The notes under the pieces were generated by a model. The model saw nothing but the letters and a program-made list of their open reading frames with translations, was not told where the DNA came from and did not search any database. A program made the position numbers and the translations under genes. A DNA stretch of 63,549 nt, the filler included, from Reclinomonas americana ATCC 50394 (taxonomy: Eukaryota): the NCBI GenBank assembly GCA_048213135.1. It is 21 parts of 21 records of this genome, joined end to end, with 100 filler letters (N's around TTAATTAATTAA, not from the genome) between each part and the next. Parts side by side here need not be neighbours in the genome. Positions count along the whole stretch, not along the records: positions 28,185 to 32,521 come from AFZH01022740.1; 20 more parts are not named here. One strand, written 5' to 3'. Within the stretch, counting starts at the first letter, position 1; each line of letters starts with the position of its first letter. Positions 28,010 through 63,482 of the stretch are shown in pieces.

Positions 28010-29032
28010 GTTGCGTGTGTGTGTGCTGCGCGCGCGGGGAGAGAGTGACGCACACAATGGAGTCTCGCAAACTCCGAATGTCGTNNNNNNNNNNNNNNNN
28101 NNNNNNNNNNNNNNNNNNNNNNNNNNNNTTAATTAATTAANNNNNNNNNNNNNNNNNNNNNNNNNNNNNNNNNNNNNNNNNNNNGCCACGACCATGTTAC
28201 AACACCCACTCGCCAGCATCCTTTGCCACCACAGAAGCTCGATCTCACACTCTTTCCTGGTCGCTTGTTCATATCTCACTGGCGATCATTTACTGTCACC
28301 CGTAGTCTCCCTCGATCGCTCGCGTGCACCACAATGTCTTGCGTGTGCGCTCTGCATGCAAGTCTCTTTCGATCGCTGAGTTGAGAGAGTGAAAACTGTG
28401 GTGTAGAGCAGAGGGAGTCTTCATCGATTGACCATAATGTCTCGTGCACGTCTTTTCTCTAGTGTGCATTCAGCCTCGGTCGTTCGCACCTCACGATCGT
28501 GTTTCTCTCGCACGCACGGCAACCTTCACTCGCCAAATCGCAGCCTCTCACTCAGTTCCTCTCGAGAGTCTCTGCACCTGTGCACTCCCAATTTACCTTC
28601 CCTCGATCGCTTTTTCGCACTGTGCTTGAGTGTCAGAGAAAGAGTGACAGAAGGAGAATGAGGCGCGATGAAGAGAGAGAGAGAGAGAGAGATACTGATC
28701 ATGTCGCTGCAGCCCCACAGCTTCTTGCTTGATCGTTTCACTCTCTCCCTTCTTTTTCCCTCTCTCTCCTCTCGCTCCCCTCTTCTTGTGTGTGCACATA
28801 ATCACAGTCTCCATCAGCCGATCTGACTGCCAGTGCTACACTACGCCTGCAACAACTACCAGGCCGTGGCCGCTGGCACTCATCTCGGCAACGGCAACTC
28901 CTGCGGCAGCTACAGTGGTGCCACCTGCAGCCAGTCTCCGTTTGACAGCTGCACGCAGTAGACAAGAGATAGAGAGAGATTCTTGCCAAGTTGAAATCTG
29001 TAATTACATGTTTGCACTTGCAACCACAGTCA

Positions 29033-32000
29033 TCACGGGCTCACAGCTGCCGCAGCTGACGGTGGCGCCAGCACAATTGTGTGATAACCGTACTCGTCTC
29101 CCGAGTCGAAACGGGCGACCGTAGTGCGACAGAGAGGACATTTGCCACGCCGCTCGACCACTTGCTGCGCGCAGTTGCGGCACATCACCTCGTGTCCGCA
29201 TGGACGCAATCGAGTGTCGCGCACATCGTAACAGAGAACGCAGGCGCGACGGCACGACAACGCAGTGAGATCGCGCATCTCCGTCACCAGTTCGTCGGCA
29301 CTCGGGCGGCGATTGGGTCGATAGTCGACACAGCTGTTTGTCGAATCATGAGGGACGATCTACGCAGTGCAAATATGCACGGGGCTGATGCTTACTACTC
29401 ACCGCATGGCCAGCCGCACAAGACGGCGACAGACGGATGTGGGCCATTCCCGACCGACGGCGGTGTCGGCCAGCAGCACAGCGGACTCATCGAGTTTCGC
29501 CGCGTCGTCGTCCTCCACCATCGCCTCGATCCACTTGTGTACCTCGGCAATCGGCTGACCGGAGAACAGTTGCAGCAGAATGAGTCCGAGGCAGTACACG
29601 TCGGCAGTCGGGCGCAGAATGCCACGCAGTGCCTGTGGATCGGCATAGTTGTGGTCGCCAGCGAACTGCACCGACAGGTGTGTCTGCTTGTCGCCACACA
29701 CTAATGAGTACATTATCGGTGGGAAGGCGAGGGACGGGAGAGTGCACACTCACCCCGGCGGTGCGGAACCAGTGCGCGATTCCCAGGTCCGAGATGCATG
29801 CCTGGCCACGCTCGTCAAACAGGATGTTGGCGGGCTTCAGGTCGCGGTGAATGACTGCGAATCATGGTTAACAAGCGAGGTCAAATCACTCACAACCGAG
29901 TTCACGGAGACTCACCATTCTGGGTGAAGTCGAGAACAGAAAGCAGTGACAGTGAGAGGGAAGGGGAGTGAGAAACGACGTCAACAAGTTGCACGACAGC
30001 GACACAAACCATCCTGTACAACAAGAAACGATGTGAAACGACCACAAGCACCCGATTTCCCACTGCAGCTGCTGTTTCACCTGTGCAACGCAGCCACGAT
30101 CTCTGAGCATCGAAGCAGGCATGTCATCCGTTCCTCGATGGCCATGACGGACAATCCGAGTGCTTGATACTCCAACAACCGGTGCTCGAGATTGTGCTCG
30201 CTTGAGAATGATCAAAAGAAAACTGCACATCAGCAACAACGAAGCAGAAGAACTGCATGCAACCAGGAATACGCGATCTCCACCAACCTCATGGCCTCTA
30301 GCACAATGCACTTCTCTCCGCGATCAGATTCGGCGAAACCAATCATGCGTACCACACCAGGCACCGTCACATTCTTCAGTTTCTCCAACTGCATCCCAGC
30401 AAATTACGATAAACACAAGATGCGATGATCATCTGGTCTCCCCACACGCAGCGCTCACCTCATTGGAGAACGACTCGATGCACCACGGCGCATCGCTGTC
30501 GAACACCTTCACAGCCACCTGCAGCTCCATCCACGTGCCAGAAAACACGCTTCCCTGTCCACCCACGCCAAGACGACGAGCAAAGCCATTTGTCATGGCG
30601 CCGACTTGCTCCCAGGTAAAGGCCGTGAGCGGAACTGCAAGAATGCTGGTCATTAGCGGCTCACAAGCAATTATCGCAACACACTCACTCATACTCACCA
30701 CGATGGTTGAGCTCGTGCTGCGCGGTGGCCAAATCTGCGGCCAGTCGTTGTGCGCGGTCGTATTCTTGCTGGCGCTGCTCGTCCATGCGCTCCAGTGAGA
30801 CTCGAAGAGCCGCACACTCCTCACGCAGGCGCTGGATAGCGGCCTCTTCCTGCGGTTGTCCACGTGCCCTCTGCTCCTCCAGCTCCTGCTGCAGGCGTGC
30901 AACATTCGCCGCACTGCTGCGACTGGCCACTTGTGTTGCATCCAATTGAGCGGTCAACTGCCCGACTCGCTGTCGCTGCTCCTCCGCCTCGTGCCGCACT
31001 TGCGCGATGGTGGCCTCGTGTTGCTGCACCAGCAGCTGCGCTGCATTCATCTGCGTGGTCTGCTCGCGAACTGCGGCTTGCTGCGCCTCCAGCTCGTGCT
31101 GCAGTTGTGCGATGGTGGCTTCGTGTTGCTGCGCCTGGGCACTCAGCTCGCGGATAGCGGCTTGCTGATCGTTCTTGTCGCGTTGCAGTTGCGCAATGGT
31201 GGCATCGCGTCGCTGCACTTGCTGTTGTGCTGCACCCACTTGGGCAGTCCGCTCGCGAACCGCTGCCTGTTGCTCTTCCACCTCGCGCCGCAGTTGCCCG
31301 ATGGTTCCTTCGTGCTGCTGCGTCATCGCCCGCTGTTGCGCCAGGTCACGCTGCAGCTGGGCGATGGTGGCCTGCGATTGTGACTGCTTGGTGCAAAGTG
31401 TGGTCAACTCCTGCGTCTGCTGCTGCACGAGGCGCTGCTGCTCGGCCAGATCACGTTGCAGTTGTGCGTTTGCAGCCTCCAGCTGCTGTTCGCGTGCTGA
31501 GTTCCCTGTCTGCCAGGTTGGTGCACAGAGAGGTCAGTGTTGGGCAAGCTTCGGTACTTGTCAGGTTTCTCTCACCGGAGAACGCACTGGTGGCGGAGCC
31601 GATGCAGAAGCAGAGGAAGCTGCAGTCGCGGATGAACAACGAGTGTGGAGGACGAAATGAAAGAGTGTCGCTGACGTACCAGATGGGGAAGTCGTTGAAG
31701 AAGCCTTGCGGAGTGTCGCTATGGCTGCTCGGGTGCGGGTAATGCGGTCAATCGTGAGCTTGGAGCTTTTGTGGTCCGGTCCCAGCACGCGACGACGCAG
31801 CGGCAACACCTCCTCGAAGATCTCCAACGCCTCCTCCAGATTGACCAAACCGCCTGCGTTGTACAGCGCGAGTGCCAAGTTATGCATGCTCGTCAGCGTT
31901 GAAGTGTGATCCTCGCCCAACACTTCACGTCTCCGGCGCACAAGGTCGCGTGAAATCCGAATCGACTCCTCGTACTCCTTGTTGTCTTTAAGTGCCAGTG

Positions 32001-32469
32001 CCAAGCGATGCAACGAATACAACACATCCTTGACATCCTCCTTGGCCCCGAGGCGCTCTTGCTTCTCCGCCGTGTCGCGCAGCAACGTAATGGCCTCGCG
32101 ATGACGCCCTTGCTTCAACAGCGCATTGCCCATGCAGGAAGCCGTAATCAACGTCTCCTTGTGAGTCGCACCCAACACGTGCTTCCTCCTCTCCAACACA
32201 TCCTCGAACACCGGCAATGCGCTCTGTGCATCTCCCGAATCCAAGAGTGCATTCGCGTAGTTGTGTGCACACACAAGAGTCCATTCATCGTCGGGGCCGC
32301 GCAAGTCCTGTAAGTCGCTCATGCAGGTTCCGTAAAGGCGCGCGGCAGTGGCATAATCTCCGCCGTTATAATGCTGCATGGCCTCATCGTACTGCCGCTT
32401 GACTTCATCGAAAGTCCGCGCACCACCTCCGCTCCGACGCATGACGACTCGCCTGTCGGACAACAACAT
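29033..32469 (-). CDS. TPR / coiled-coil / RLK-Pelle(IRAK)-like Ser/Thr kinase / C3HC4 RING protein, 910 aa, 11 exons: 32469-31680, 31619-31576, 31509-30699, 30634-30459, 30388-30288, 30200-30081, 30013-30010, 29919-29916, 29854-29754, 29683-29403, 29333-29033
   Basis: All 10 introns are GT-AG and 60-90 nt; the spliced 2733 nt are in frame. TPRs of the LGxDHxxTLxxxxNLA type; Q-rich heptads; [75 protein letters not shown]-x9-PCGH-x3-CRNC-x9-CPLC. The first intron is in frame and stop-free, so it could be retained. Confidence 0.88.
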
Positions 32470-34196
32470 GAAGGACGATGCATTCTAGCGGACGGCGGCA
32501 GCTTCCTGTCGCTGGTGCCCCNNNNNNNNNNNNNNNNNNNNNNNNNNNNNNNNNNNNNNNNNNNNTTAATTAATTAANNNNNNNNNNNNNNNNNNNNNNN
32601 NNNNNNNNNNNNNNNNNNNNNGCTGCCGGGTTTGGAACCCGGCCGCCGGGTTTCAGCAGGTCAAGGTTGTCCAGGACCCGGTGCGCCCTTGTTACACACT
32701 GCATGCACTGCAATATCCACACTGTTTGCGCATATCACGCGAGGGATGTGGAAAAAGTGCTTGTGCAGTCCAATGCAAGATGATCGACGTCGAGGGCGAG
32801 TCTGCTCATGTACATGTTATGTCGTTGAGACAGCTCTCGGCGAGAGAATCCACCAAGTACGCAATGCATGGATATTATCGAAACAGTTGCCGTCGGTCTT
32901 TCCTGCCTCGCTGCGATGTGCCATCGCAACTAATGTACGGCTCTGCAGCCTCGCACGACGATGAAATCGGCATGCGAGAGACCATTCACCTCTTGCCCCT
33001 GCCCGGTGGTCACGAACACGTACAACACCAACTCGCCATCATCCTTTACCGCCACAGAAACTCCCCTTCGCTTTCCCAAAATACTCACACGAAAGGAAAA
33101 CCACTCACGAGCGCAGCGGCGATCCACTGCGCCGTCCACTCATGTGCACCGTCTCCCGCCGCAGTACCTCCAACAGCGTGTTCGCTGACTCGACAATCTG
33201 CGGCAAACGAAGCGGGTTGGACGCGTCGAAAGCGAACAGCTCGATTCACAGAGTCTTACTCTCACGATCGATCGCTCAGCAACAGCATCTCGCTCATACA
33301 AGACCGCACCTCTCTCTCTCTCTCTCTCTTTCTCTCTCCTTCCTCACTCCCTCCCTCCCTCTTGCATGATCGCTTGCATCTCTCAGGTGATCGATACTCG
33401 CGTAAACTCTCCCTCAATTGCTCACTCGTTGCCTTCCGCAATAAACCCGTGTCTTGGCGTCTGTGCTCTCTGCATATCTCCCTCGATCGCCAAGTCGAGA
33501 AAGAGAAAATTGAGCGAGGAGCGAGAAGGGAGAGTAAGAGGAGCAATCAACCGAGTCAGCGCGACAGAGAGAAAGGCGAAAGAGTGGAGCGATAGAGCTT
33601 GGAGAGACATCGCTCAACGCAGTCTCTTGCGCTCCCTCATTTTCTCTCTTCTTCTCCATACATTCTATACCCTGACTGCCTGTCTCGATAGTAGCTCGAA
33701 AGGTTGCTCTCGTGCGCACTGCAGTCTAGATCGCTTTCACACAGCCGCTCAATCGCAGCCTATCTCAAGCAAATTGTCTAGGCGTGGGCGCTCTTTGTAT
33801 GTCTCCCCAATCGAATGTTTGAGTGTTAGGGAGAATGACACAAGGGGAAAGAGCGATCAACCAAGCGAGACTGAACATCTCCACGGCGCTTCTCGCTTGA
33901 TCGCTCCTCTCTCTTTTTTCTCTTTCTCTCGTCTCATGTATGAACGCTGTCACATCTCTGTCTCTCAGCCCCAGCCTCTGCCTGATCGCTCCTCCTCTGC
34001 TTTTTATAACTCACTTCCTCCTCTGTCAAAGCCGCAATCGCCTGATCGTTCATCCTTCCCACTTCCTCTCTANNNNNNNNNNNNNNNNNNNNNNNNNNNN
34101 NNNNNNNNNNNNNNNNTTAATTAATTAANNNNNNNNNNNNNNNNNNNNNNNNNNNNNNNNNNNNNNNNNNNNTCTCTCTCTCTCTCTCTCCTCCTC

Positions 34197-46822: not shown

Positions 46823-47552
46823 GCGGCAGGCTGATGCGGCGCACGCCGAGTTCTTTCAGGCGCGGCAGCGGGATCAGCGGCGTGGTCGGGCGCGGGCGGA
46901 TGCCGAAGCCCATATTGATCGAAACCGGCTTGCCGCCGGCCGCCTCGACGACGCGGGCGATCTGGTCCTCGGTCTTGACGGCGTCGGGGAAGATCGCGTC
47001 GGCGCCGGCGGCGACATAGGCGCGGATGCGCTCCAGCGTCGCGTCGATCCCCTCGACGGCAAGGGCGTCGGTGCGGGCGATGATGACGAAATCGTCGTCG
47101 CGGCGGGCGAGGCAGGCGGCCTCGATCTTCTTGACCATCTCCTCCCTTGAGACGACTTCCTTGCCGGGCATGTGGCCGCAGCGCTTCGGGCTGACCTGGT
47201 CCTCCAGGTTGACGCCGGCGACGCCGGCCTCCTCGAACATCTGCACGGTGTAATGCACGTTCATCGGGTTGCCGTAGCCGTTGTCGGCGTCGCAGGTCAG
47301 CGGGATCGCGATCGAGCGGGCGAGCTGGCGGCAGTGATTAACGTTTTCGTTCAGCCCCATCATACCGAGATCCTCGACGCCGAGGATCGCATTGGCGATG
47401 GCGGCGCCGCTGGTGCAGGCGCTCTTGAAGCCGGCGGCTTCGACCAGGCGGGCGCTGTAGCCGTCATAGACGCCGGGCGAGACCAGGAACTCGCCGGAGT
47501 TGAGCAGGGCCCGGAAGGCGGCCGGAGCCGAAATCTCGCGTCTGGCGATCAT
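46823..47552 (-). CDS. Isocitrate lyase/PEP mutase family enzyme (methylisocitrate- or dimethylmalate-lyase-like); 3' truncated
   Basis: PGVYDGYSARL, TSGA, DADNGYG, EDQVSPKRCGH, IIARTDA. Confidence 0.92.
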
Positions 47553-47945
47553 GATGCTCGTTTCTCCGCATCGGTGGCGGCAGGGGATGGGGGTTCGGGA
47601 ACTTGGGCCAGCACATGGCGGCCTGCGCGCTCGACATGCGAGCGCATCAGGGATTCGGCGAGGGCGCCGTCGCGCATCTTGATGGCGCGCAGGATCTGCC
47701 AGTGCTCGGTGAAGGCGAGCTCCTTGCGCTCCGGCACGGCGCCGGAGATGCGCCGGTAGATCCGCAGCAGGTGGTAGAGATCGCCGCAGAGGCTGTCGAT
47801 GATGCGGTTGTTGCCGCTGGCGCGCACGACCCGCTCATGGAAGTCGAAGCGTGTCGTCTCGGGCGGCTGCTGGCCAGAATGCGCGGCTTCGAGATCGGCG
47901 ATCAGCGCGTCGATCTCGGCCTCGCCCATCCGCTGGGCGGCGAGG
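47549..47945 (-). CDS. GntR-family regulator, C-terminal FCD domain; 5' truncated
   Basis: FDFHERVVRASGN, EHWQILRAIKMRD...AESLMRSHV; its stop overlaps the lyase start (ATGA). Confidence 0.85.
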
Positions 47946-48045
47946 NNNNNNNNNNNNNNNNNNNNNNNNNNNNNNNNNNNNNNNNNNNNTTAATTAATTA
48001 ANNNNNNNNNNNNNNNNNNNNNNNNNNNNNNNNNNNNNNNNNNNN

Positions 48046-48428
48046 AGGCAAATGCGCTTCGCGCCGATCGCCTTCAGCGCATGGCGGATCGCGCCGCTCG
48101 CGGTCTCGACGGGAAAGCCCGCCGCCTCAGAGAGGCATGCGGCCAGAGCATCGTCGGCGCCAGCGCCGAGCCGGTAGCTCGGTCCGGTCAGCGCGACCGT
48201 CGCGGCATCGAGCTTCAGGCTGCCGAAGGTTTTCAGGGCCGGCTGGTAAGAGGCGATGTAAGCGCGATTGCGCTGCTCCAGCGTCGTATCCGGCATCACC
48301 GGCAGGCGCGTGGCGTAGAGCCGGGCGCCGGCGGAGATCAGCCGGTTCATCTCCGGCTCGACAGTCGGGTTGGCCGGCGGGACGAGCACGCCCAGAGCGG
48401 GCTGCGTAGCGAGTTCGGCGAGATCCAT
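48046..48428 (-). CDS. Asp/Glu racemase superfamily protein (maleate isomerase / arylmalonate decarboxylase-like); 3' truncated
   Basis: LGVLVPPANPTVEPEM...ATRLP...PVETASGAIRHALKAIGAKRI. Confidence 0.82.
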
Positions 48429-48436
48429 GATGTCCC

Positions 48437-49517
48437 TCAGGCGGCACGGGCAGGGCGCTCGAGCATGTCGAGCATTGCGGCGGCGGCGAGATAGTCGATG
48501 GCGCTGCTGCGCGAGGCGGCGAGATCGCGCACCTTCTGCAGCCAGTCCTCGCCGCCGGCGACGTTGCGGTCGGTGCGCGGGATCAGCATCTCTTCGGCGA
48601 CGCGCTTGCGCTCGGCTGCAGCTGCGACGACGAGCTCCGGCCGGTGCTCACGCAAGGCGCGGATCATCGCCTCGGCGAGCGCCTTCGCATCGTGGATGCC
48701 GCAATTCATGTTCATGCCGCCGCGGGTGTTGGTGACATGGGCGCCGTCGCCAGCGAGGAAGGCGCGGCCGACATGGTAGTGCGAGGCGACACGGCGGCTG
48801 GCGCCGTAGACGTCGCGCCCCAGCACCGTCGGCGGCGTGGTCCAGCTCGGCATGACCTCGCGGATGCGGTCGGCGAACCAGCCGTCCTGGAGCGCTGTCT
48901 CGTCCGGCACGTCGCCCGGCACGCGGATGATGATGCGCCAGCAATCCGGCATCTTGAGGAAGCTCAGGGATTTGCCGCCGTTGTGCAGATAAGTGATCGG
49001 CGCGATCCCCGGCAGCACCAGATCGAGATCGTCCGAGGTCATCACGCGCAGGACCTTGTGCGGATAGACCATGCCGTCGAAGGCGATGCCGAGCGCCTCG
49101 CGCACGGCGCTGCGGGCGCCGTCGGTGCCGAGCAAATAGTCGGCCGCGATAGTCAGCTTCTGCCCGTCGCGGTCTGCGGTGACGGTGACGCCATTCTCGT
49201 CCTGCGCAACCGCCTCGAAGCCGGTGCCGAACAGCATGCGGGCATTGGGAAGCGCCTCGATCTGCGCCAGCAGCAGCGGCGTCAGGCGCGCCTGCTCCAG
49301 ATGCAGCCGGAAGGGCCAGGGGGTGCGCTCGGCGGGGTCGGCGAGGATGAACTCGGCGAAGGGGCCGTCCGGCGTGCGGTACTGGATGCGCTTGACGATC
49401 TCGCCCTCGGCCAGCATCGGCTGGAGTACGTCGAGCTCGTCGAGGATCTCCAGCGTCGCCGGATGGAAGGTCGAGGCCTTGGAGGCGGCGGTGAGCGCGG
49501 CGCGCTTTTCGAGCACG
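48437..49517 (-). CDS. FAD-dependent monooxygenase (group A aromatic hydroxylase family); 5' truncated
   Basis: SKASTFHPATLEILD, DG motif GTDGARSAVR, GD motif GRAFLAGDGAH...GGMNMNCGIHDA. Confidence 0.92.
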
Positions 49518-49617
49518 NNNNNNNNNNNNNNNNNNNNNNNNNNNNNNNNNNNNNNNNNNNNTTAATTAATTAANNNNNNNNNNNNNNNNNNNNNNNNNNN
49601 NNNNNNNNNNNNNNNNN

Positions 49618-49861
49618 CGCCGATGCCGCGCCGATGGGCCGGGACGTTGTTCAGCGGCCTTCCGTCGAAGGTGATGGTGCCGCCGGACGGATCCTCGAAG
49701 CCGGCCAGCATCATCAGCGTCGTGGTCTTGCCCGAGCCGGATGGGCCGAGCAGCGTGACGAACTCGCCGCGCTCGACGGCGAAGTCGAGCGACTTCACGA
49801 CCTGCGTCGCGCCGTCATAGCTCTTGGTGACCTTGTCGAAGACGATGATGGGATCGCTCAT
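49618..49861 (-). CDS. ABC transporter ATPase (PotA-like); 3' truncated
   Basis: Walker A GPSGSGKTT, LAGFEDP, VPAHRRGIG. Confidence 0.92.
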
Positions 49862-49868
49862 GATGCAC

Positions 49869-50714
49869 TCATGCAGTCGGGCCGGATGGGGAGGCCCCGC
49901 GGGCCTGCGCGCGCTTCCGGATGAATTCGTTGAGGGCCAGCAGCAGCACCGAGAAGAGGATCAGCAGCACGGCGGCGGCGGCGATGGTCGGGCTCAGGAA
50001 TTCGCGCAGGCCGGCATACATCTGGCGCGGCAGCGTGAACTGGCCGGGACTGGCGATGAACAGCGCTACGATCAATTCGTCGAAGGAGGTGGCGAAGGCG
50101 AAGAGCGCCCCCGTCGCCACGCCCGGTGCGATCAGCGGCAGCACGACGCGGCGGAAGGCGATGGCCGGGTTGGCGCCCAGGCTCGCGGCGGCGCGCAGCA
50201 GGTTCTGGTCGAAGGTCTGCAGCGAGGCCAGCACCGTCAGCAGCACGAAGGGCACCGAGAGCACTGTGTGGGCGAGGATCAGGCCGGTCAGCGTCGAGCC
50301 GAGGCCGACGAGCGACAGCGAGAAATACATGGCGATCGCGGTGACGATGACCGGCGTCACCATCGGCAGCGACAGGATGGCGAGGAGCAGCGCCTTGCCG
50401 GGGAAACGGCCGAGGAAGATGCCGAAGGCGGCGAGCGTGCCGAGCAGCGTCGCCAGGATCATGGTGGCGATGCCGACGACGAAGCTGTTCCAGGTGGCGC
50501 TGAGCCAGCGGCTGGAGGTGAAGAAGTCCTCGTACCAGCGCAGCGAATAGCCCGGCGTCGGCAGCACCAGCAATTCGCCCGAGGAGAGCGAGAGCGGGAA
50601 GACGACGACGATCGGCGCCACCAGGAAGAGCAGGATCAGGGCCGTGACCAAAGCGAGCGCGAGGCGTCCGGCCGAGAGCTTGCGCGCCGGGGAGGATGGA
50701 GCGGTGCCTGCCAT
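49869..50714 (-). CDS. ABC permease (PotC-like)
   Basis: Hydrophobic segments, SLRWY, EAA-like RAAASLGA loop, SFDE. Confidence 0.93.
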   Translation of the reverse strand: MAGTAPSSPARKLSAGRLALALVTALILLFLVAPIVVVFPLSLSSGELLVLPTPGYSLRWYEDFFTSSRWLSATWNSFVVGIATMILATLLGTLAAFGIFLGRFPGKALLLAILSLPMVTPVIVTAIAMYFSLSLVGLGSTLTGLILAHTVLSVPFVLLTVLASLQTFDQNLLRAAASLGANPAIAFRRVVLPLIAPGVATGALFAFATSFDELIVALFIASPGQFTLPRQMYAGLREFLSPTIAAAAVLLILFSVLLLALNEFIRKRAQARGASPSGPTA

Positions 50715-50717
50715 CGC

Positions 50718-51896
50718 TCAGACCTTCACGTTGCCGGAGCGGAAGCCGGGCACGATCAGCCGCGCGACGATGACGAGCAGCGCGGTCATCGCCATCAGCA
50801 GGGTCGCCAGCGCGGCGGCCATGCCCCAGTTCACCGAGGTGTTGGTGAAGAAGGCGATGAAGTAGCTGACCATCTGGTCGCCGGAGCCGCCGACGAGGGC
50901 GGGCGTGATGTAGAAGCCGACCGAGAGCATGAACACCATCAGCGATCCCGCGGCGACGCCTGGCATGGTCAGCGGCAGGTAGATGCGCAGGAAGCGGCGC
51001 CAGCCCGGCGCGCCGAGCGAGGCGGCGGCACGCATATAGTCCGGCTTGATCCCCTTCATCACGCCATAGAGCGGCAGGATGGCGAAGGGCAGTAGCACGT
51101 GGACCATGGCGAGATAGACGGCAAAGCGGGTGAAGATCATCGTCAGCGGCTGGTTGACGATGTCGAAGGCGAGCAGTAGCGCGTTGATCGGCCCCTCGCG
51201 CTGCAGGATGATGAACCAGGCGGTCGTCCGCACCAGGATCGAGGTCCAGAACGGGATCAGCACCAGCATCATCCCGGCATTGGCCCAGCCCTGCGGCAGG
51301 ATCGAGAGCGTGTAGGCGACGGGATAGGCCAGCAGCGCGCAGATTACCGTGACGATCAGGCTGATCTCGAAGGTGCGCCAGAACAGCGGCAGGAAGACCG
51401 CATCCTCGGCGCCGGCATGGACGATGCCCTTGTCGGTCGGGCGCATATCGAGCGAGCGCAGAAGGTAGAGCGAGGTCCAGGGACCGGTCGCGCGCTTGAA
51501 CATGCGCCAGAGCTCAGGCTCGCCCCAGCGCGGATTGAGCGCGATCAGGCCATCTTTCACTGGCGGAGCCAGCCGAGCAGAAGCCCGGGCGGCCTGCAGC
51601 AACAGGCTGCGCAGGCCGGTCTCCTCGAAGTTGAGGCGGCTGAGGACAGCCCCGGCCTCCTGGTTCTGCTGCGCGTTGCGCAATTCCTCGACGATGGCGG
51701 CAAAGGCCTCGTCGGGCGGCAGGTCCTTGCCGTCCCAGGCGCGCAGCAAGGCAGTGGTGCGGGGCAGGGTGGTCGAGAACTCGGAATCGTCGACCGCCCG
51801 ATAGAGCGTCGCCCCGAGCGGGACGAGGAAGCTCAGCGTGACCAGGAGCAGGAGGGGCGCGATCAGCGCCGCCGCCAGCAGGTTCCGTCGTGACAT
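50718..51896 (-). CDS. ABC permease (PotB-like)
   Basis: LIPFWTSILVRT, RAAASLGA, FYITPALVGG. Confidence 0.93.
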   Translation of the reverse strand: MSRRNLLAAALIAPLLLLVTLSFLVPLGATLYRAVDDSEFSTTLPRTTALLRAWDGKDLPPDEAFAAIVEELRNAQQNQEAGAVLSRLNFEETGLRSLLLQAARASARLAPPVKDGLIALNPRWGEPELWRMFKRATGPWTSLYLLRSLDMRPTDKGIVHAGAEDAVFLPLFWRTFEISLIVTVICALLAYPVAYTLSILPQGWANAGMMLVLIPFWTSILVRTTAWFIILQREGPINALLLAFDIVNQPLTMIFTRFAVYLAMVHVLLPFAILPLYGVMKGIKPDYMRAAASLGAPGWRRFLRIYLPLTMPGVAAGSLMVFMLSVGFYITPALVGGSGDQMVSYFIAFFTNTSVNWGMAAALATLLMAMTALLVIVARLIVPGFRSGNVKV

Positions 51897-51923
51897 GCCG
51901 AGCCCTCGTGCCGGATCGAGGTT

Positions 51924-52961
51924 TTACTTTGCCAGCCAGGCGTTGAAGCGGGCCTCGAGATCCTCACCGTGCTCGACCCAGAACTCGGTGTTGATGAAGA
52001 GCCCTTCCTTGGCGTGGTTGGCGACCATGCCCGGGTTCTTCTTGATGATCTCGGGATTGTTGGCGACGGCGGCGTTGGCCGGCGACACCGCCCAGTCCTG
52101 CGCGAGATTGGTCAGCGGCTTCTCGTCGGTCATGTAGCTGATCAGCTTCATGCCCTCGGCCTTGTTCGGCGCGTTGCGCACCACCGTCCAGTAATCGAAC
52201 GAGAACAGCAGCGTGTTCCACTGCACCGGGTACTTGGCGCCGCCTTCATTGGCGCGGATCGTGCGTCCGACATAGCCGACCGCATAGGCGGCCTCGCCCG
52301 AGCCGACGAGCTGCAGCGGCTGCGTTCCCGACTTCCACCAGACGACATGCGGCTTGATCTGGTCGAGCTTGGCGAAGGCGCGCTTCTGCCCGTCCGGTGT
52401 CGCCAGCACCTTGTAGACCTCGGCGGCCGGCACGCCGTCGGCGAGCAGGGCGATCTCGAGCGTCATCTTGGCGCCGGACCGCAGCGAGCGCTTCCCGGGG
52501 AACTTCTGGAAGTCCCAGAGTTCGGCATAGTTCGCCGGGCCGGTTGCGGTGCGGGCCTGGTCGTAGAACAGGCTGACGCCCCAGCCGACGGCGCCGGCGC
52601 CGCAGGCGGTGGTGCCGCCCGGAATGAACTTCTTCTGGTCGATGACGCTCCAGTCGAGCTTCTCGAAGACGCCGTCCTCGCAGCCGCGGGCGAGCTCGGG
52701 CGCCTCGACCATGATCACGTCGTAGGTGACGTCGTTCGACTTCACCATCGAATAGATCTTGGCCATCTCGCCATTGTAGACGTCGTCGGCGACCTTCACG
52801 CCCTTTTCGGTGGCATAGCCCTGGAACAGGTGCTTGCGGGCATTGTCCTGGAAGCCGCCGCCGAAGCCGACGACCATCAGGTCGCGCGCCGAAGCGGGAG
52901 CCGCGGCCGCGGCCAGTCCAAGCGCGAACAGCCCCGCGCAGGCAAGTCTCGTCGTCTTCAT
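51924..52961 (-). CDS. ABC substrate-binding protein (polyamine/PotD-like)
   Basis: Signal peptide MKTTRLACAGLFALGLAAAAAPASA; WDFQKFPGKRSLR, LEIALLADGV; GAGGGG ribosome-binding site 6 nt upstream of the ATG at 52961. Confidence 0.9.
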   Translation of the reverse strand: MKTTRLACAGLFALGLAAAAAPASARDLMVVGFGGGFQDNARKHLFQGYATEKGVKVADDVYNGEMAKIYSMVKSNDVTYDVIMVEAPELARGCEDGVFEKLDWSVIDQKKFIPGGTTACGAGAVGWGVSLFYDQARTATGPANYAELWDFQKFPGKRSLRSGAKMTLEIALLADGVPAAEVYKVLATPDGQKRAFAKLDQIKPHVVWWKSGTQPLQLVGSGEAAYAVGYVGRTIRANEGGAKYPVQWNTLLFSFDYWTVVRNAPNKAEGMKLISYMTDEKPLTNLAQDWAVSPANAAVANNPEIIKKNPGMVANHAKEGLFINTEFWVEHGEDLEARFNAWLAK

Positions 52962-53137
52962 GCTCATCCCCTCGTTCTTATGGATATCAAGCCCGGGTTT
53001 CGACGGCCATCGACGGCAGCCCGGCTGCCACGTCAAGCCGCCTGCCACCCGCGTGACAAGCGTATTGGTATTTTTGATATGATGATGATACATATCTGTC
53101 AACGGCTACCCGACGCCGTGCTCTCCAGGGACCTCCG

Positions 53138-53316
53138 ATGACCGCAGCCACGCTTTCGCTCGATCCGATCTCGCCCGCGATCCGCCCGACCCAGCAGGAT
53201 CCGGACCAGCGCTATCGCTATCAGCACTATATCGACGGCGCCTTCGTCGATCCGGCGAGCAATGCCTGGCTGGAGACGTCCGGATCCGGTGACGGGCGAG
53301 GGACTGGGGCCTGGGT
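53138..53316 (+). CDS. Aldehyde dehydrogenase N-terminus, truncated, with indels near the contig end
   Basis: YQHYIDGAFVDPASNAWLET followed, in a shifted frame, by DPVTGE; typical ALDH start. Confidence 0.65.
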
Positions 53317-53416
53317 NNNNNNNNNNNNNNNNNNNNNNNNNNNNNNNNNNNNNNNNNNNNTTAATTAATTAANNNNNNNNNNNNNNNNNNNNNNNNNNNN
53401 NNNNNNNNNNNNNNNN

Positions 53417-54061
53417 CTCGATCGAGCGCAAGATCTCGACCAGCTCGGTATCCTCGCTGCGCGCCTCGATACCCAGCGCGCCCTGCCCGACGGCATAGGG
53501 GAACGCGACGGGGTCGAGGAATTCGGACGACTTGCGCCCGAGGCCGAGCCGCTCCAGCCCGGCATGGGCGAGGATGACGGCGTCGAGCGCATCGTCACCT
53601 TCGATCTTGGCGAGCCGCGGGCCGATATTGCCGCGGATGGGAACAACGGTGACGTCGGGGCGCAGGCTCAGGATCTGTGCGCGCCGGCGCAGCGAGCCGG
53701 TTCCCACCCTCGCGCCTTCCGGCAAATCTTCGAGCGCCGAGCCGCACAGCACATCGCGTGGATCCTCGCGCTTGGGCACGGAGGCCAGGACGAGGCCGTC
53801 GCGAAGAATGGTCGGCAGGTCCTTGAGCGAATGGACGACGAAATCGACGTCCTTGCGGAGCAGCTGCTCCTCATGCTCGGTCGTGAAGACGCCGATCATG
53901 CCGAACTGATGGAACTCGGAGACCCTGTCGCGATCGGCGACGGTCGAAATCGGGCAAATCTCGAATTCGATATGCGGATGCAATGCCTGAATTGAACCAA
54001 TTACAAAGTTGGTTTGCGTCATGGCAAGGGGGCTGCGGCGGGTGCCAACGCGAAGAAGCAT
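53417..54061 (-). CDS. hemC: Hydroxymethylbilane synthase (porphobilinogen deaminase), divergent; 3' truncated
   Basis: RVGTRRSPLAMTQ, VHSLKDLP, REDPRD, VGTGSLRR, IRGNI, AVGQGALGIE. Confidence 0.9.
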
Positions 54062-54314
54062 AATTCGTGAACCTGTTTGCGCCGTGCACGCGCGATCGCG
54101 CACCGTCTAGCAGTTGCGATCCCGGAGTGAAAGTGCGGCAGATTCGCCGGCTCGGCAGTGCCCGCGCGCGGCTTTTGCGCTGCCAGACGTGGCCAAATGC
54201 GGCGAGGACGCGTCCCGCCCATCGTGACGGCCATCGCCTCTCGACGCGAACGGGCGGAGCGTGCAAATTGACCGCCAGGAGCGGCTGGGCTCCTTCCTTC
54301 GTCTGGTTCGCCGC

Positions 54315-55310
54315 ATGCATCGCCGCTCCCTTCTGGTTGCCCTGGCAGTGTGCGGCCTCGCGATGTCGGGCCGGGCGGCGCGCTCGGCGGAACCGGCCAA
54401 GCGGATTTCGATGCTGATCGGGTTGCCGCTCGACCATCCCATCGTGAGCGCGCGCGTGGCCGAACTCTATCGGCTGCTAGCCGAGCGGGGCTGGGTCGAG
54501 GGCAAGAATTTGCGGGTCAGCTGGAGAGTCTGGGGAGCGAGCGAGGTGGACCTTGCCCGCGGCGCCGCCGAGGTCGTCGCCGAGAACCCGGACATCATCG
54601 TCGTCGGTTCCAGTGCCGAGACTGCGGCCGTGCTGGCGAAGACCCGGCGGATACCGGTGCTGTTCGGGACGGCCTCGGATCCGGTCGGGAGCGGCTTCGT
54701 GCGCTCGCTCGAACGTCCGGATGGAAACGCCACGGGCTTCAGCAACAACGACCCCGCAATGTCGGAGAAATGGGTCGAGCTGCTGGCCGAGATCGCGCCG
54801 GCGACGCGGCGCATCGGGGTGGTCTTCAATCCCCATACGACGCCTGCGGCCGGAGCGACCTATCTTGCGCGCCTGCGGGCGGCGGCGACTGGCGACGAGC
54901 CGGCCTTCGAGACGATCCAGGTGACCGAACCTGCCGCGATCGACCGGGAGATCGCCGGATTCGCCGGCAAGGGAGCGGGCGGCGGCCTGGTCTTCCTGCC
55001 GGACAGCTTCACCTACCGCAATGCCGCGCTCTGCACCGCCGCTGCCGCGCGTCTGGCCTTGCCCGCTGTCTACCCGTTCGACACCTTCACCTTGCAGGGC
55101 GGCTTGATGTCCTATGCCGGGGCGCGCGAGGAGACGGCCGAGATGCTCGCCTCCTATATCGACCTCATCCTGCGCGGGGCCGATGTCGCCGAATTGCCGG
55201 TGCAGTTCTCGCGCAGCTTCGAGCTGGTCATCAACGAAAAGGCCGCCGCGGCCCTGGGGCTGAGCCTGCCGGCCTCGCTGCGGATCCGTGCGCAACGGAT
55301 CCTGTCGTGA
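54315..55310 (+). CDS. Stand-alone ABC-type substrate-binding protein (ABC_sub_bind family) with twin-Arg-like signal
   Basis: MHRRSLL..., GWVEGKNL, DPVGSGFVRSLERPDGNATG, GGLMSY, LPVQFSRSFELVINEKAA. Confidence 0.9.
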   Translation: MHRRSLLVALAVCGLAMSGRAARSAEPAKRISMLIGLPLDHPIVSARVAELYRLLAERGWVEGKNLRVSWRVWGASEVDLARGAAEVVAENPDIIVVGSSAETAAVLAKTRRIPVLFGTASDPVGSGFVRSLERPDGNATGFSNNDPAMSEKWVELLAEIAPATRRIGVVFNPHTTPAAGATYLARLRAAATGDEPAFETIQVTEPAAIDREIAGFAGKGAGGGLVFLPDSFTYRNAALCTAAAARLALPAVYPFDTFTLQGGLMSYAGAREETAEMLASYIDLILRGADVAELPVQFSRSFELVINEKAAAALGLSLPASLRIRAQRILS

Positions 55311-57228
55311 CGCAAGACGCCCTGGCGGGACAAGACGGCTCCCGGCGCCGGCGCGGCGAGCTCACCCGCAAATATGCGCTCTTCGTCGGCCTTGCAATCT
55401 GCCTCGCGCTCGGGCTCAACGCGGCGATCGCGACCTTCTTCGCCTTCTCGGACCAGAGGGCGCTCCTGGTTCGGGTCCAGCAGGAACAGGCNNNNNNNNN
55501 NNNNNNNNNNNNNNNNNNNNNNNNNNNNNNNNNNNTTAATTAATTAANNNNNNNNNNNNNNNNNNNNNNNNNNNNNNNNNNNNNNNNNNNNGGCCTCGCA
55601 AAGCGGCGCCAGCAGCAGTTCGCCGGAGGAGCGCCGGCTCGACGGTCTGCGGCTGATGCGGCAGGTCCCCGCCGTGCTCGAATTGCGCCAGATCGATCCC
55701 GGCGGGCGCGAGCAGCTCCTGTTGTCGCGCTATGCGCGGGACCGGGCGGATGGCGGCACCGACTGGTCGACCGATCCCGGCTTCCAGGCCGCCCTGGCGC
55801 AGGGCAGCTTCCACAGCGAGGTCGAGTTCCGGCGCGGATCGGAGCCGCATATGGTGCTGCTTCGGCGGGCGGCGTCGCCTCCTCACTGGGTCGCGCGAGC
55901 CACCGTCAATCTCGTCTTCATCCGCGAGCTGGTCTCGCGCCTCAAGGTTGGCGAGGCCGGCCGCGCCTATATCGTCACGCGCTCCGGGCGCCTGATCGCC
56001 CATCCAGACCTGCGCTTCGTGCTGCGCAACACCAACCTCGCCGCGCTCGTGAACGCGCATGAGGCTGCAGGAGCGGCCAAGGCCGGGCTTTCGATGACCG
56101 ATATCGAGGGCCGGCGCGTCCTTTCGGTGATGACTGCGGTCCCGGATCTCGACTGGAACGTGGTGATCGACCTGCCCGAGAGCGAGGCCTTCGCGCCGAT
56201 CCATGCCTCGATTCTGCGTTCGCTGACGGTGCTGCTCCTGGCCCTGCTGGTGGCTGTGCTGGCCGGCATCATGCTGAGCCGCAAGCTGGTCGCGCCGATC
56301 AAGGCTCTCGGCGAGGGGGCGGCGCGGATCGGCCGCGGCGAGCTCGACGCGCGGATCGCGATCCACACCGGCGACGAGCTCCAGGAACTGGGCGAGCAGT
56401 TCAATGTGATGGCCGAACGCCTGGCGGAAGGCCGGGCGGTCCTGGAGGACAAGGTCGCCGAGCGCACCGCGGCGCTGGAGCAGGCGCTGACGCTCGCCTC
56501 TGCTGGGCAGAAGGCGGCGGAGGAGGCGACGCGGGCCAAGTCCCGGTTCCTGGCGGTGGTGGGGCACGATATCCGCACACCGCTCGCCGGCGTGCTCGGC
56601 GTGCTCGAACTGATCGATCGCCGCCGCATGAGCCAGCGCGACCGTCGCCTCGTTGCCATGGCCGTGACCTCGGGCGAAGCGCTGGTCGACCTCGCCAATG
56701 CGACGCTCGACCTGTCGCGGCTGGAGGCCGGGACCGAAAGCCTCGACCGGCGCGATTTCGACCTCTGTGCCCTCCTCGGTGCGGCGGTGGCGCTGATGCG
56801 GCCGCTGGCGGAACAGAAGGGGCTTGCCCTGACGCTGCGCCCTCCGCCAGAGGAGCTGCGCCTGCACGGCGATGCCGGCAAGATCCACCGCATCCTGGTC
56901 AACCTGCTGCGCAATGCGATCAGCTTCACTGAGGCGGGTGAGGTGGTGCTGGCGGCAGAGCTGCAGCGCGCCTCGGCGGGGAAGGGCCTGGATCTGACAT
57001 TGACCGTTAGCGACACCGGCATCGGCATCGATCCGGCCATGCAACGGCAGATCTTCCGGGATTTCGTGCAGGTCGATCCTGAAACGGGGCGGCGCAATGG
57101 CGGCGTCGGGCTTGGCCTTGCGATCTGCACCAAGCTGGCGGAGCTGATGGGCGGTTCGATCTCCGTCGCCAGCGCCAAGGGGCAGGGCAGCACCTTCTCG
57201 GTCAGGCTGCCGGTGACGGCGGCCAGGG
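55307..57228 (+). CDS. Membrane sensor histidine kinase (TM-Cache-TM-HAMP-HisKA-HATPase), interrupted by the gap at 55492-55591; 3' truncated
   Basis: GTG start overlaps the SBP stop; AYIVTRSGRLIAHPD (Cache), TGDELQELGEQFNVMA (HAMP), GHDIRTPL (H-box), NLLRNAISF, DTGIG, GVGLGL. Confidence 0.9.
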
Positions 57229-57328
57229 NNNNNNNNNNNNNNNNNNNNNNNNNNNNNNNNNNNNNNNNNNNNTTAATTAATTAANNNNNNNNNNNNNNNN
57301 NNNNNNNNNNNNNNNNNNNNNNNNNNNN

Positions 57329-57542
57329 AGAGCAGGATCTTGAGCGGCCCGCCGCCGCCGGCCTTGGTCGGCTTGTACTGCAGCGAGGCCTGCGCCATCG
57401 CGACGTCGTTCCAGGCCAGGATCTGCGAGGCGATCGGCGCCGTGATGCCGACGGCAGCCAGTCTACGAATGAAGGAGCGGCGGGAGATCGCGCCATCCTT
57501 CACGTTCTCGATCAAGCCGCTCAGCGTACGCTCGTCCATCAT
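57329..57542 (-). CDS. Peptide ABC transporter substrate-binding protein, N-terminal fragment
   Basis: Tat-like ISRRSFI signal followed by YKPTKAGGGGPLKILL. Confidence 0.7.
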
Positions 57543-57670
57543 ATTCCCCTGTTTTAGCTGGCCTATTATGAGGTGGCCCGGGGGGAGCCTAATGCATGCT
57601 CGGCCCGGCGGCTATGCCCTGTTTCGGCCGTAATTCCGGCATTTCGCTCGATAAGGGGCATGGCCTTGCG

Positions 57671-58555
57671 TCAACCCGTTGCGATTTCGCGTGCCAGATT
57701 GGCGAGATAGCCGCACTCGTCGGCAGATTCGTTGTTCCACCACATTGCGCACAGATTGTGCGAGGGGATCGGCGGCTCGGCTTCGAGCACGCGCAGCGCC
57801 AGCTTCTCGCCGGAGAGATGGATCATCTCGCGCGGGATCATCGCAGCACCGGTGCCGGCGCTCGCGAGCCGAGCGATCACGGTCAGCGGGTTGCAGGTGT
57901 TGAGGCGGCGCGGTTTCAGCCCGTGCGCGCCGAACCACATCTGGATGGTGGTGAACAGGCCGGACGGCGAGCCGTTGGTGAAGATCGGCAGGTCGACCAG
58001 GTTCTCCGGCGTCGCGACGTTGCCGACGAAGGACAGGCCCTCCCCGATCACCCAGACGAGATCGATCAGCCAGAGCGGGACGATGGTGATCCCGTCATGG
58101 GCGCGCGGCTGCGAAAGGAAGGCGATGTCGATCGAGCGGTCGAGCAGCAACTGCTCCAGCTTCGTGCTGAAATCGACGGTGACGTCGACCTGCAATTCGG
58201 CATGGCGGCGCGCCAGCTGGGCAAGCAGGGCGGGCAGGATGGCGGCGGCGAAGGAATCGGCGGCGCCGATGCGCAGCAGGCTCCTGCCGCGCAGGCCGTC
58301 CTTGCTGTGGCGCTGCACCTGCTCGGCATGGGCCAGCATGCGCTCGACATCGGCATAGATCGCATTGCCGAGCGTCGTCGGCACCGGGCGGTAGAGCGAG
58401 CGGTCGAAGAGCTCGCCGCCGAGGATGCGCTCAAGCTCCTTGATGCGCAGGCTGACGGTCGGCTGTGAGAGATTGAGATGCTGGGCAGCGGCGCGGAACC
58501 CGCCGAGCCGGGCGACCCAGTAGAACGCTTCCGCCTGACCGAAGGTATACCGCAT
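57671..58555 (-). CDS. LysR-family transcriptional regulator
   Basis: HTH GGFRAAAQHLNLSQPTVSLRIKELE...LFDRS; divergent from the ABC operon. Confidence 0.95.
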   Translation of the reverse strand: MRYTFGQAEAFYWVARLGGFRAAAQHLNLSQPTVSLRIKELERILGGELFDRSLYRPVPTTLGNAIYADVERMLAHAEQVQRHSKDGLRGRSLLRIGAADSFAAAILPALLAQLARRHAELQVDVTVDFSTKLEQLLLDRSIDIAFLSQPRAHDGITIVPLWLIDLVWVIGEGLSFVGNVATPENLVDLPIFTNGSPSGLFTTIQMWFGAHGLKPRRLNTCNPLTVIARLASAGTGAAMIPREMIHLSGEKLALRVLEAEPPIPSHNLCAMWWNNESADECGYLANLAREIATG

Positions 58556-58699
58556 CGCCAAGATGATAGCCGCAGACAATCGAGCGGCAAGCACTTCTTA
58601 TTTTTATTCGTCGTCTCGGCGCTCTAGCTTTCCCCCCGTTCGGCGCGGCGCCGGTCTCCGGCGCCGCCAAGGCATTGCCAATAAAACAGGGGGACTCCG

Positions 58700-60259
58700 A
58701 TGCTGACCGTGCCGACAAATCGCCGTGCGTTTCTCGCAGCCGCAGCAGGCGGCGCCCTGGGCGGCCTCTTGCCCGCGAGCCTGCTTCATGCCCAACCGAA
58801 CAATGGCAAGACGCTGACCATCGTCCTGCCGAGCAATCCGATCACGATCGATCCGATAAACCAGCTCAATCACGACGCCATGGTGCTCGGCCAGACCGTG
58901 TTCGAGAACCTGGTCGAATACGATGTCGACGGCGTGCTGAAGCCGCAGCTGGCCAAGGCCCTGCCGGTAATCTCGGCCGACAAGAAGACCTACACCTTCG
59001 AATTGCGCGACGACGTCACCTTCCACAACGGCAAGAAGATGACCGCGGAGGACGTGAAATACTCCTTCGACTATCTGCTCGACCCCGCCAACAAGGCGGC
59101 GCGCCGCTCGCTCTTCACCCGCATCACCAAGGTCACGGTTCTCGACCCGCTGAAGGTGCAGTTCGAGCTGTCGGAGCCCTACGGCCCCTGGCTGTATTTC
59201 TTGACCAAGTACATGGGCATCTACCCTGCGGGCTCGCGCAAGGAGCATGGCGACGACTATTTCAAGTCGAAGCCCGCCGGTGTCGGCACCGGCTTCGGCG
59301 TCTTCGAGGAGTGGAAGCCGAACGACTATATCAGCTTCAAGAAGAACCCGACCTACTGGCGCAAGGGTCTGCCGCATTGGGACCGGCTCGTCGTCAAGAT
59401 GATCCCGGAGGATGCGACCCGCGTCGCCTATCTGCTCACCGGCCAGGTCGACCTGATCAGCGCCCCGCCGCCGCGGGAGTTCAGCCGGCTGAAGACGATG
59501 CCGGGCATCGCCGGCGCCTCGCGTCCGACCCTGGGCGGCGCGCTGCTGATGTACACCAACAACCTGAAAGCCCCGTTCGACGACGTGAACTTCCGCAAGG
59601 CCGTCTCCGCAGCGATCGACCGCAAGACGATCGGCGAGAAGGTCTATTACGGGCTGCTCGACCCCTCGTCCGTGCCGGCGCCGGCGCGCGGCTGGTGGTT
59701 CAATGCCGAGGCCGACAAGGAGCTCGGCTTTGACCTCGACAAGGCGAAAGCCCTGCTCGCCAAGTCGAAATATGCCACGGGAGCCGAATTCGACCTCAGC
59801 ATCCAGGCGGAGCCCTATCTGCTCGACACCAAGGATGCGGCGATCTTCGTGCAGGCGCAGCTCGCCAAGATCGGCATCAAGGTCAATCTCAAGGTCTACG
59901 AGTTCTCGGTGCTGATCCAGCAGGCGATCCGCGGCGAACACCAGGCGGCGCTGCAGGTCTTCATGTCGCCGGGGGAGCCGAGCTATATCATGCAGGTCTG
60001 CCTGACGCCGGAGCAGGTGCTGTCGAAGAGCACGGGCTACAACAATCCCGAGTTCAACCAGACGCTGGCAGCAGCTTTCGCCGAGACGGAGGAAGCCAAG
60101 CTCAAGGAGCTCTATGGCAAGCTGCAGATGCTCGCTGCCCGCGATGCGCCGATCGGCGTGCTCGGCTATGTCCACGCCTCCAATCTCTGGCGGCAAGCGC
60201 TGCAGGATGTGAAGGTCAACCAGGGCCTGACCATCGCCCCCGGCGAAATCAAGGTCTGA
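58700..60259 (+). CDS. ABC substrate-binding protein, family 5 (Dpp/Opp-like)
   Basis: Twin-Arg signal NRRAFL; YTFELRDDVTFHNGKKMTAEDVKYSF; PFDDVNFRKAVSAAIDR. Confidence 0.95.
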   Translation: MLTVPTNRRAFLAAAAGGALGGLLPASLLHAQPNNGKTLTIVLPSNPITIDPINQLNHDAMVLGQTVFENLVEYDVDGVLKPQLAKALPVISADKKTYTFELRDDVTFHNGKKMTAEDVKYSFDYLLDPANKAARRSLFTRITKVTVLDPLKVQFELSEPYGPWLYFLTKYMGIYPAGSRKEHGDDYFKSKPAGVGTGFGVFEEWKPNDYISFKKNPTYWRKGLPHWDRLVVKMIPEDATRVAYLLTGQVDLISAPPPREFSRLKTMPGIAGASRPTLGGALLMYTNNLKAPFDDVNFRKAVSAAIDRKTIGEKVYYGLLDPSSVPAPARGWWFNAEADKELGFDLDKAKALLAKSKYATGAEFDLSIQAEPYLLDTKDAAIFVQAQLAKIGIKVNLKVYEFSVLIQQAIRGEHQAALQVFMSPGEPSYIMQVCLTPEQVLSKSTGYNNPEFNQTLAAAFAETEEAKLKELYGKLQMLAARDAPIGVLGYVHASNLWRQALQDVKVNQGLTIAPGEIKV

Positions 60260-60270
60260 GCGAGCCCGCC

Positions 60271-62096: not shown

Positions 62097-62388
62097 GCCC
62101 GACCCTTCTCAGCGTCGAGGGCCTGCGCGTCGGCTTCCGTTCGGCCGATGGCGGCATGATCGAGGCAGTGCGCGGTGTCGACTTCTCGGTCGCACCGGGC
62201 GAGGCCGTCGGCATCGTCGGCGAGTCCGGCTCCGGCAAGAGCCTCAGCATGCTGGCGGTGATGCGCCTGCTCGGGGCGCCGGCGCGCGCCACTGGCGGAC
62301 AGGTGATCTTCGACGGCGAGGACCTGCTCGCCGCCGACGAGAAGCGCATGCGGGCGCTGCGCGGGCGTGACATCGCCATGGTCTTCCA
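62093..62388 (+). CDS. ABC ATPase (DppD-like); 3' truncated
   Basis: MSPTLLSVEGL...GIVGESGSGKS...RGRDIAMVF; ATGA overlap with the preceding permease. Confidence 0.92.
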
Positions 62389-63416: not shown

Positions 63417-63482
63417 CCAGATCGCCCAATCCGCAAGTTCCGGCCGCCGCTGGCGGCCACCTTCATTCCGCCGAGGTCCATC

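Follow-up and report, generated by a model that had tools for sequence, protein, structure and literature searches.

A candidate pair of consecutive 4-nt microexons at the kinase catalytic loop of a TPR-kinase-RING gene of Reclinomonas americana

The locus considered here raises the question of how a coding sequence is carried from helix E into the catalytic loop of a protein kinase when the two exons concerned are separated by 226 nt (29855-30080) whose removal as a single intron shifts the reading frame. The window analyzed, that is, the whole stretch of 63,549 nt from Reclinomonas americana ATCC 50394, consists of 21 contigs joined end to end, and the host gene, at 29036-32484 on the minus strand, encodes tetratricopeptide repeats (TPR), a coiled coil, a Ser/Thr kinase domain and a C-terminal RING finger, in that order. 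As argued below from the sequence of the locus, the splice model that best explains the junction is probably one with two consecutive 4-nt microexons, GATG and AATG, separated from each other and from the flanking exons by three short introns, and both microexons would be included in the mRNA.

The junction between helix E and the catalytic loop

On the minus strand, the helix D/E exon ends at 30081 with GCG TTG CAC AG, encoding Ala-Leu-His and the first two bases of an Arg codon, and the exon that follows the third interval opens with TC ATT CAC CGC GAC. Between these two exons lie three intervals bounded by intron-like termini and, between the intervals, two segments of 4 nt (Table 1). A first-pass annotation of this DNA had proposed both segments as microexons, and its coordinates, lengths and strings for the microexons and for the three intervals were all recovered by re-reading the minus strand. 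The 8 nt of both microexons, together with the flanking split codons, spell Arg-Met-Asn-Val, and translation of the joined exons yields the open frame and the peptide that the annotation had quoted. Both candidate exons are internal, lie within a 15-nt limit for microexons and are bordered by a functional-looking acceptor and donor; the reading frame and a conserved protein feature also depend on the inclusion of both. When microexon 1, microexon 2 or both are skipped, the frame shifts, as had been claimed, and a stop follows after 16, 16 and 22 codons, respectively.

The further claim that intron retention runs into a TGA held for two of the three intervals only. Retained intron 1 brings a stop at codon 2 and retained intron 3 at codon 6, but intron 2 spans exactly 30 codons and contains no in-frame stop. 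Because of these 30 stop-free codons, an ordinary 98-nt exon (30013-29916), flanked by introns 1 and 3 only and adding a 30-residue insert to the protein, also keeps the frame, and such an exon could represent either the main form or a frequent isoform. The open frame of intron 2 is, however, uninformative, since the interval is pyrimidine-rich with 10% A, and the frame is equally open in 59% of its composition-preserving shuffles (5,906 of 10,000). The composition of the 98-nt piece was evaluated by comparing a three-periodic second-order Markov model, trained on verified coding sequence (about 5.5 kb), with a homogeneous model of verified introns. In the frame in which a 98-nt exon would be translated, the piece scores -18.9 bits for coding versus intron, a value as low as that of only 3 among 171 chunks of true exons (median +25.9), and it holds within itself a donor in the top 1.4% and an acceptor in the top 6.3% of their respective classes, positioned so as to leave exactly 8 nt.

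Splice sites, kinase homology and chance expectation

Splice-site quality was assessed against 14 reference introns from the window, verified by homology or by frame, from which the three candidate introns were excluded. Junctions in the genes for an acetyl-CoA synthetase and a kinesin were solved with bacterial-type acetyl-CoA synthetase proteins and kinesins, taking at each junction the GT/GC..AG pair under which the alignment was best recovered, and six introns of the kinase gene with unambiguous junctions were joined to this set. Unsupervised intron finding via bridging of open reading frames generated 45,012 candidates, too noisy a set, and was dropped in favor of homology-guided junction solving. 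Eleven of the reference introns measure 59-87 nt and the remaining three 183-807 nt, and the candidate introns (67, 90 and 61 nt) conform to the shorter group. Reference donors are loose, comprising GTGAGT, GTTGCG, GTTAGT, GTTGGT and GTTTGT, and a CAG acceptor is found in 12 of the 14 introns; the GTTTGT donor of intron 2 is also used by a homology-verified kinesin intron (24905-24835).

Position matrices derived from the 14 introns were used to rank the candidate sites against every GT and AG on both strands of 14 eukaryote-like contigs. Of the four inner sites, which delimit the microexons, the intron 1 acceptor scored 10.2 and the intron 2 acceptor 4.6, within the top 0.6% and the top 6.3% of AG sites, and the intron 2 and intron 3 donors scored 8.7 and 8.5, within the top 1.4% and the top 1.7% of GT sites. 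Both outer sites are weak, at 0.9 for the donor of intron 1 and 0.8 for the acceptor of intron 3. In leave-one-out scoring, the verified introns range from -3.0 to 11.3 for acceptors and from 1.4 to 12.0 for donors; the intron 3 acceptor falls inside the first range and the intron 1 donor just under the second. With the gene's own six introns withheld from matrix construction, the four inner sites still ranked in the top 0.9-8.2%.

The fit to related kinases provides a second line of evidence. Relatives were identified through an exhaustive profile search with the C-lobe exon, which returned 67 matches at E-values up to 0.001. The four top matches, looked up by name, belong to the algae Closterium and Tetrabaena, and further relatives look, by eye, like plant receptor-like kinases. 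A kinase profile was then assembled from 25 kinase segments of 20 relatives. The distance from the helix-E histidine to the HRD histidine, read by eye, varies from 5 to 10 residues in these segments and exceeds 10 in none of them, which leaves the 30-residue insert of a 98-nt exon unlike any of the 25. The two-microexon model places five residues between the two histidines. This spacing, LHxxxVIHRDLK, had been described as canonical by the first-pass annotation, and it does occur in 7 of the 25 segments, all seven from four Closterium and Tetrabaena proteins, but it is one value in a range rather than a fixed distance.

To compare splice models, every in-frame, stop-free way of combining up to three GT/GC..AG introns across the region, 948 in number, was listed and scored on the kinase profile. 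The two-microexon model attains 177.6 bits and ranks fifth, the best model reaching 178.9 bits, a difference without meaning because the profile tolerates 5-10 residues at this point; for the same reason, homology alone does not pick 8 nt. The two-microexon translation aligns to the profile as one domain of 177.4 bits. The 98-nt exon still obtains 164.4 bits in total but breaks the match into pieces of 47.2 and 115.2 bits and ranks 83rd of 948. Among the 13 models lying no more than 6 bits below the best, the summed splice score is highest for the two-microexon model, at 33.7, the next being 22.9.

The probability of finding such an arrangement by chance was addressed by defining a chain as two sites of 1-12 nt with splice scores at least as high as those observed and with all three intervals of at least 55 nt. 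Chains were detected in 2 of 20,000 random 226-nt windows, both with a summed length of 8 nt and matching this locus itself, and in none of 5,000 dinucleotide shuffles or of 220 windows within verified long introns. Searched exhaustively, the 14 eukaryote-like contigs yielded three pairs of microexon-like sites in total, including the candidate pair. The other two both lie in the repetitive contig at 1-3394, whose low end carries WD40 coding repeats, and their flanks look, by eye, like the repeat of that contig. Single look-alike sites number 14 across the same contigs. It is the chain of two sites, and not the single sites, that exceeds chance expectation.

Sites of the form ..GGxCAG/CAxxTT/GTGAGTGG (slashes mark the apparent exon boundaries) recur in the contigs at 1-3394 and 3495-7009 and pass the microexon splice thresholds (Table 1). 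They constitute a ready source of false microexon calls.

A loose 16-nt motif, TTGACGTCGTTTCTCA, is present with variants on the minus strand of all three candidate introns (29869-29884, 29969-29984 and 30022-30047), and an origin of the three introns by duplication was considered and rejected. Their pairwise local alignments score 14-18, values to be compared with the 22 reached by pairs of unrelated introns, and the observed scores were matched by shuffles in 23, 106 and 365 of 1,000 trials. Because the alignments are no better than those between unrelated introns, the motif shared by the three introns is probably compositional.

Competing readings of the junction

Under the two-microexon model, the three short introns would be removed separately, leaving GATG and AATG between the helix-E and catalytic-loop exons. 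Each candidate intron appears to carry its own GT donor, branch-like YTNAY motif, pyrimidine run and CAG acceptor, and each would probably be recognized as a unit of its own, by intron definition. Given introns of about 65 nt, the spliceosome would most probably pair sites across each of them, and exon size would be of little weight. At both microexons the donor would stand 4 nt past the preceding acceptor, and the factors bound there would be expected to overlap, which argues for stepwise rather than simultaneous removal of the introns. Stepwise removal would fit a trend reported in a plant microexon study, in which detention and late splicing are common among the introns that flank microexons (PMC8831610). 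The combination of strong inner and weak outer sites may also offset the absence of exon definition. Missing a microexon, or keeping intron 1 or 3, would truncate the product upstream of the catalytic loop and the RING finger, and retention of intron 2 would add an in-frame insert of 30 residues; correct splicing would thus be obligatory, in that all mis-splicing except intron 2 retention is predicted to truncate the protein before the catalytic loop. The suggestion in the first-pass annotation that the microexons act as a splicing on/off switch for kinase and RING output is speculation. A related scheme, in which both 4-nt exons are constitutive and the stop-free 90-nt intron undergoes regulated retention, alternating between an active kinase-RING protein and one with a broken kinase core and an intact RING, is doubtful.

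Several points weigh against the two-microexon model. Intron 2 is open in frame, and a simpler model with two introns is formally possible. The outer splice sites are weak (0.9 and 0.8), although both are required by every splice model. Only 14 introns underlie the matrices, and about 5.5 kb of sequence underlies the coding model. With relatives accepting 5-10 residues at this point, homology cannot separate 8 nt from 14-17 nt. No protein in a library of 5.8 billion shares words with the 44-residue helix-E exon, and no paralogue of the TPR-kinase gene was found within the window. The only outside candidate, a lone metagenome locus retrieved as a seeded-pattern match, has a GC content of 65% and no match to any other exon, and was dismissed as a chance hit. 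Finally, the contig measures just 4.3 kb and belongs to an assembly that is both fragmented and mixed.

The alternative that survives best, which we regard as unlikely without being negligible, is that the locus encodes no working kinase, being a decaying copy or an assembly error in which the whole 226 nt form one frame-shifting intron. Fragmentation of the assembly into contigs of 1-5 kb and its mixture with bacterial contigs would be compatible with an error, and TPR-kinase genes often occur in expanded families. Decay, however, sits poorly with the six other introns of the gene, every junction of which is in frame, and with the intact kinase and RING motifs; reading the interval as one intron leaves too few residues before HRD, even after an indel; and a dead intron is unlikely to show four strong, frame-restoring sites of a kind absent from all 5,000 shuffles and all 220 long-intron windows.

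There is a slim chance that the junction is spliced differently with a similar spacing in the protein, either with one exon of 8 nt, GATGGTTT (30013-30006), and a 151-nt intron after it, or with microexon 1 extended by 6-9 nt via a downstream GT or GC donor. These models are in frame, fit the kinase profile equally well (176.1 to 178.9 bits) and would be served by intron lengths known from this genome, where introns of 183-807 nt occur. Their splice sites are poorer: the worst site scores between -0.1 and -6.1, and the splice sums of 11.8 to 22.9 compare with 33.7 for the two-microexon model. The good acceptor and the GTGAGT donor that flank AATG would, moreover, be left unexplained. The single 8-nt exon is the neatest of these alternatives, with 176.1 bits, a splice sum of 11.8 and a donor of about -0.1.

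The 98-nt exon, which requires no microexon and would be the likely choice of a standard gene finder, is the least probable of the readings weighed, given its intron-like composition, the kinase match that it splits and the well-placed splice sites that it contains.

Gene context and comparison with known microexons

The contig that carries the candidate microexons spans 4,337 nt (28185-32521), and the upstream end of the TPR-kinase-RING gene is lost at 32521. A glycine loop and a Val-Ala-Val-Lys (VAVK) motif are visible in the translated N-lobe exons, and the HRD and DLG catalytic motifs are both present in the exon translations of the kinase. The catalytic-loop exon by itself matches the Pkinase profile (PF00069) at positions 120-148 with 32.2 bits against a cut-off of 31.7, and the RING finger in the last exon matches zf-C3HC4_3 (PF13920) with 40.1 bits against a cut-off of 27. 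The kinase exons measure 176, 101, 120, 101 and 281 nt. The first-pass annotation had called non-triplet 4-nt exons rare; in a gene with an intron for about every 100-280 nt of coding sequence, very short exons would be less unexpected than in most genomes, and where exons are this short, a 4-nt exon is, by our estimate, not extremely improbable a priori.

Table 1. Predicted exons, introns and candidate microexons of the TPR-kinase-RING gene, and look-alike sites elsewhere in the window
Feature	Position	Strand	Details
TPR exon	32484-31576	minus	Pfam TPR_10 and TPR_12
Intron between TPR and coiled-coil-like exons	31575-31510	minus	
Coiled-coil-like exon	31509-30699	minus	Long, Gln/Ala-rich
Kinase N-lobe exon, first	30634-30459	minus	Kinase N-lobe region 30288..30634
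Intron between kinase N-lobe exons	30458-30389	minus	70 nt
Kinase N-lobe exon, second	30388-30288	minus	
Kinase intron K3	30201-30287	minus	Apparent AAG acceptor
Kinase helix D/E exon	30081..30200	minus	Contributes to the single 177-bit kinase-profile match
Candidate intron 1	30080-30014	minus	67 nt; cag/GTGAAA ... GTACAG/g
Candidate microexon 1	30013-30010	minus	GATG; last base of Arg codon and Met codon
Candidate intron 2	30009-29920	minus	90 nt; atg/GTTTGT ... ACCCAG/a
Candidate microexon 2	29919-29916	minus	AATG; Asn codon and first base of Val codon
Candidate intron 3	29915-29855	minus	61 nt; atg/GTGAGT ... TCGCAG/t
Catalytic-loop exon	29754..29854	minus	Pfam PF00069; (Val)-Ile-His-Arg-Asp-Leu-Lys to Asp-Leu-Gly
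Kinase C-lobe exon	29403..29683	minus	Weak Pkinase match; nearest relatives 33-42% identical
Last exon	29036..29333	minus	End of kinase domain and C-terminal RING finger
CAxxTT look-alike site	448-453	minus	Within open reading frame with WD40 Pfam match
CAxxTT look-alike site	3075-3080	minus	
CAxxTT look-alike site	3324-3329	minus	
CAxxTT look-alike site	5774-5779	minus	Within open reading frame with WD40 Pfam match
CAxxTT look-alike site	6407-6412	minus	Within open reading frame with WD40 Pfam match

The apparent AAG acceptor of kinase intron K3 has a possible second instance in an acetyl-CoA synthetase intron at about 21500-21560 on the minus strand, a candidate that was not formally solved.

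The 21 contigs of the window are joined by identical linkers made of 44 N, TTAATTAATTAA (with stops in all six frames) and another 44 N, as at 28085-28184 and 32522-32621. Because the window consists of joined contigs, distances and neighborhoods across linkers are not trustworthy. The first 14 contigs have a GC content of 53-57.5% and are eukaryotic, harboring WD40 genes, an intron-rich acetyl-CoA synthetase, a kinesin, Vta1 and CTU2. The last seven (46823-63549) have a GC content of 66-70%, and four of them, including those at 49618-53316, 53417-55491 and 57329-62388, present bacterial Pfam families, among which are a LysR regulator, ABC-transporter permeases and the solute-binding proteins SBP_bac_5, SBP_bac_8 and ABC_sub_bind. 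As judged by GC content and Pfam families, the assembly is a mixture of a eukaryote with bacteria.

The acetyl-CoA synthetase gene (18076-23055, minus strand) has at least nine spliceosomal introns and spans the linker at 20621-20720, running collinearly from the contig at 20721-24180 into that at 15165-20620, so that this linker, at least, stands for an ordered scaffold gap. Its exon at 18786-18529 is 83% identical to bacterial enzymes. For the kinesin exon, the best matches are about 40% identical and scattered among oomycetes, ciliates and insects. Immediately downstream of the GTGAGT donor of this exon, at 24281-24600 on the minus strand, about 130 nt of GA-rich sequence are followed by about 190 nt of CT-rich sequence, forming an imperfect long inverted arrangement inside an intron that runs off the contig.

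If real, the two-microexon arrangement would illustrate the reach of splicing by intron definition, with two exons of sub-codon scale, 90 nt apart, that are obligatory for a kinase and a RING ligase domain. It would also represent an annotation trap, in which a standard gene finder would either add 30 spurious residues to the catalytic core or break the gene. The expectation in the first-pass annotation that exons this small are overlooked finds support in the plant microexon study (PMC8831610), and the locus could serve as a practical test case for microexon-aware gene modeling in protist genomes rich in short introns.

Tiny exons and adjacent pairs of them have been documented before, so the locus opens no new question in this respect. 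The closest likeness is to a plant gene of the Peptidase M1 family, for which adjacent microexons of 5 and 12 nt are described in rice, Arabidopsis and Zygnema; the pair was verified by reverse-transcription PCR (PMC8831610) and, in Zygnema, by RNA sequencing (PMC11096116). The two cases share neighboring ultra-short coding exons, ordinary flanking introns, a conserved protein motif at stake and a pair missed by annotation. They differ in gene and lineage and in size, the pair studied here consisting of 4 + 4 nt, neither a multiple of three, and being predicted from sequence. By Pfam content, the TPR-kinase-RING host lies outside MEPmodeler clusters 7 and 28 (Peptidase M1, 108-nt tag), and the likeness is in kind only.

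Other systems resemble single aspects of the locus. Human MPC1 (PMC9929638) contains a constitutive 4-bp microexon whose length likewise is no multiple of three and whose inclusion is needed to keep the frame; it differs from the predicted pair, two such exons in a row between introns of about 65 nt, in standing alone, in a long-intron vertebrate gene for which exon-definition elements have been mapped. The plant genes APC11 and VPS55 have 1-nt microexons, VPS55 with an alternative form that arises by intron retention beside the microexon, according to PMC8831610, and similarly show the spliceosome coping with exons far below codon size; theirs are reported as conserved throughout the land plants and have RNA evidence, whereas the case described here is a single predicted locus. 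Human RPS24 provides a precedent for several consecutive microexons in one gene, with three of 3, 18 and 22 bp (PMC12207440, PMC11162997). Those are described as alternative and located at the 3' end of the coding region, in contrast to the two candidate exons, both of which would be needed before any kinase or RING protein could be made. In the literature searched, no account of two 4-nt exons in succession was found. Exons as small as 1-5 nt, as well as neighboring pairs of microexons, have been described before in plants and animals, and the kind of structure is not new; if constitutively spliced, the pair predicted at this catalytic loop would be the smallest adjacent exon pair that we found described, totaling 8 nt with neither exon a multiple of three.

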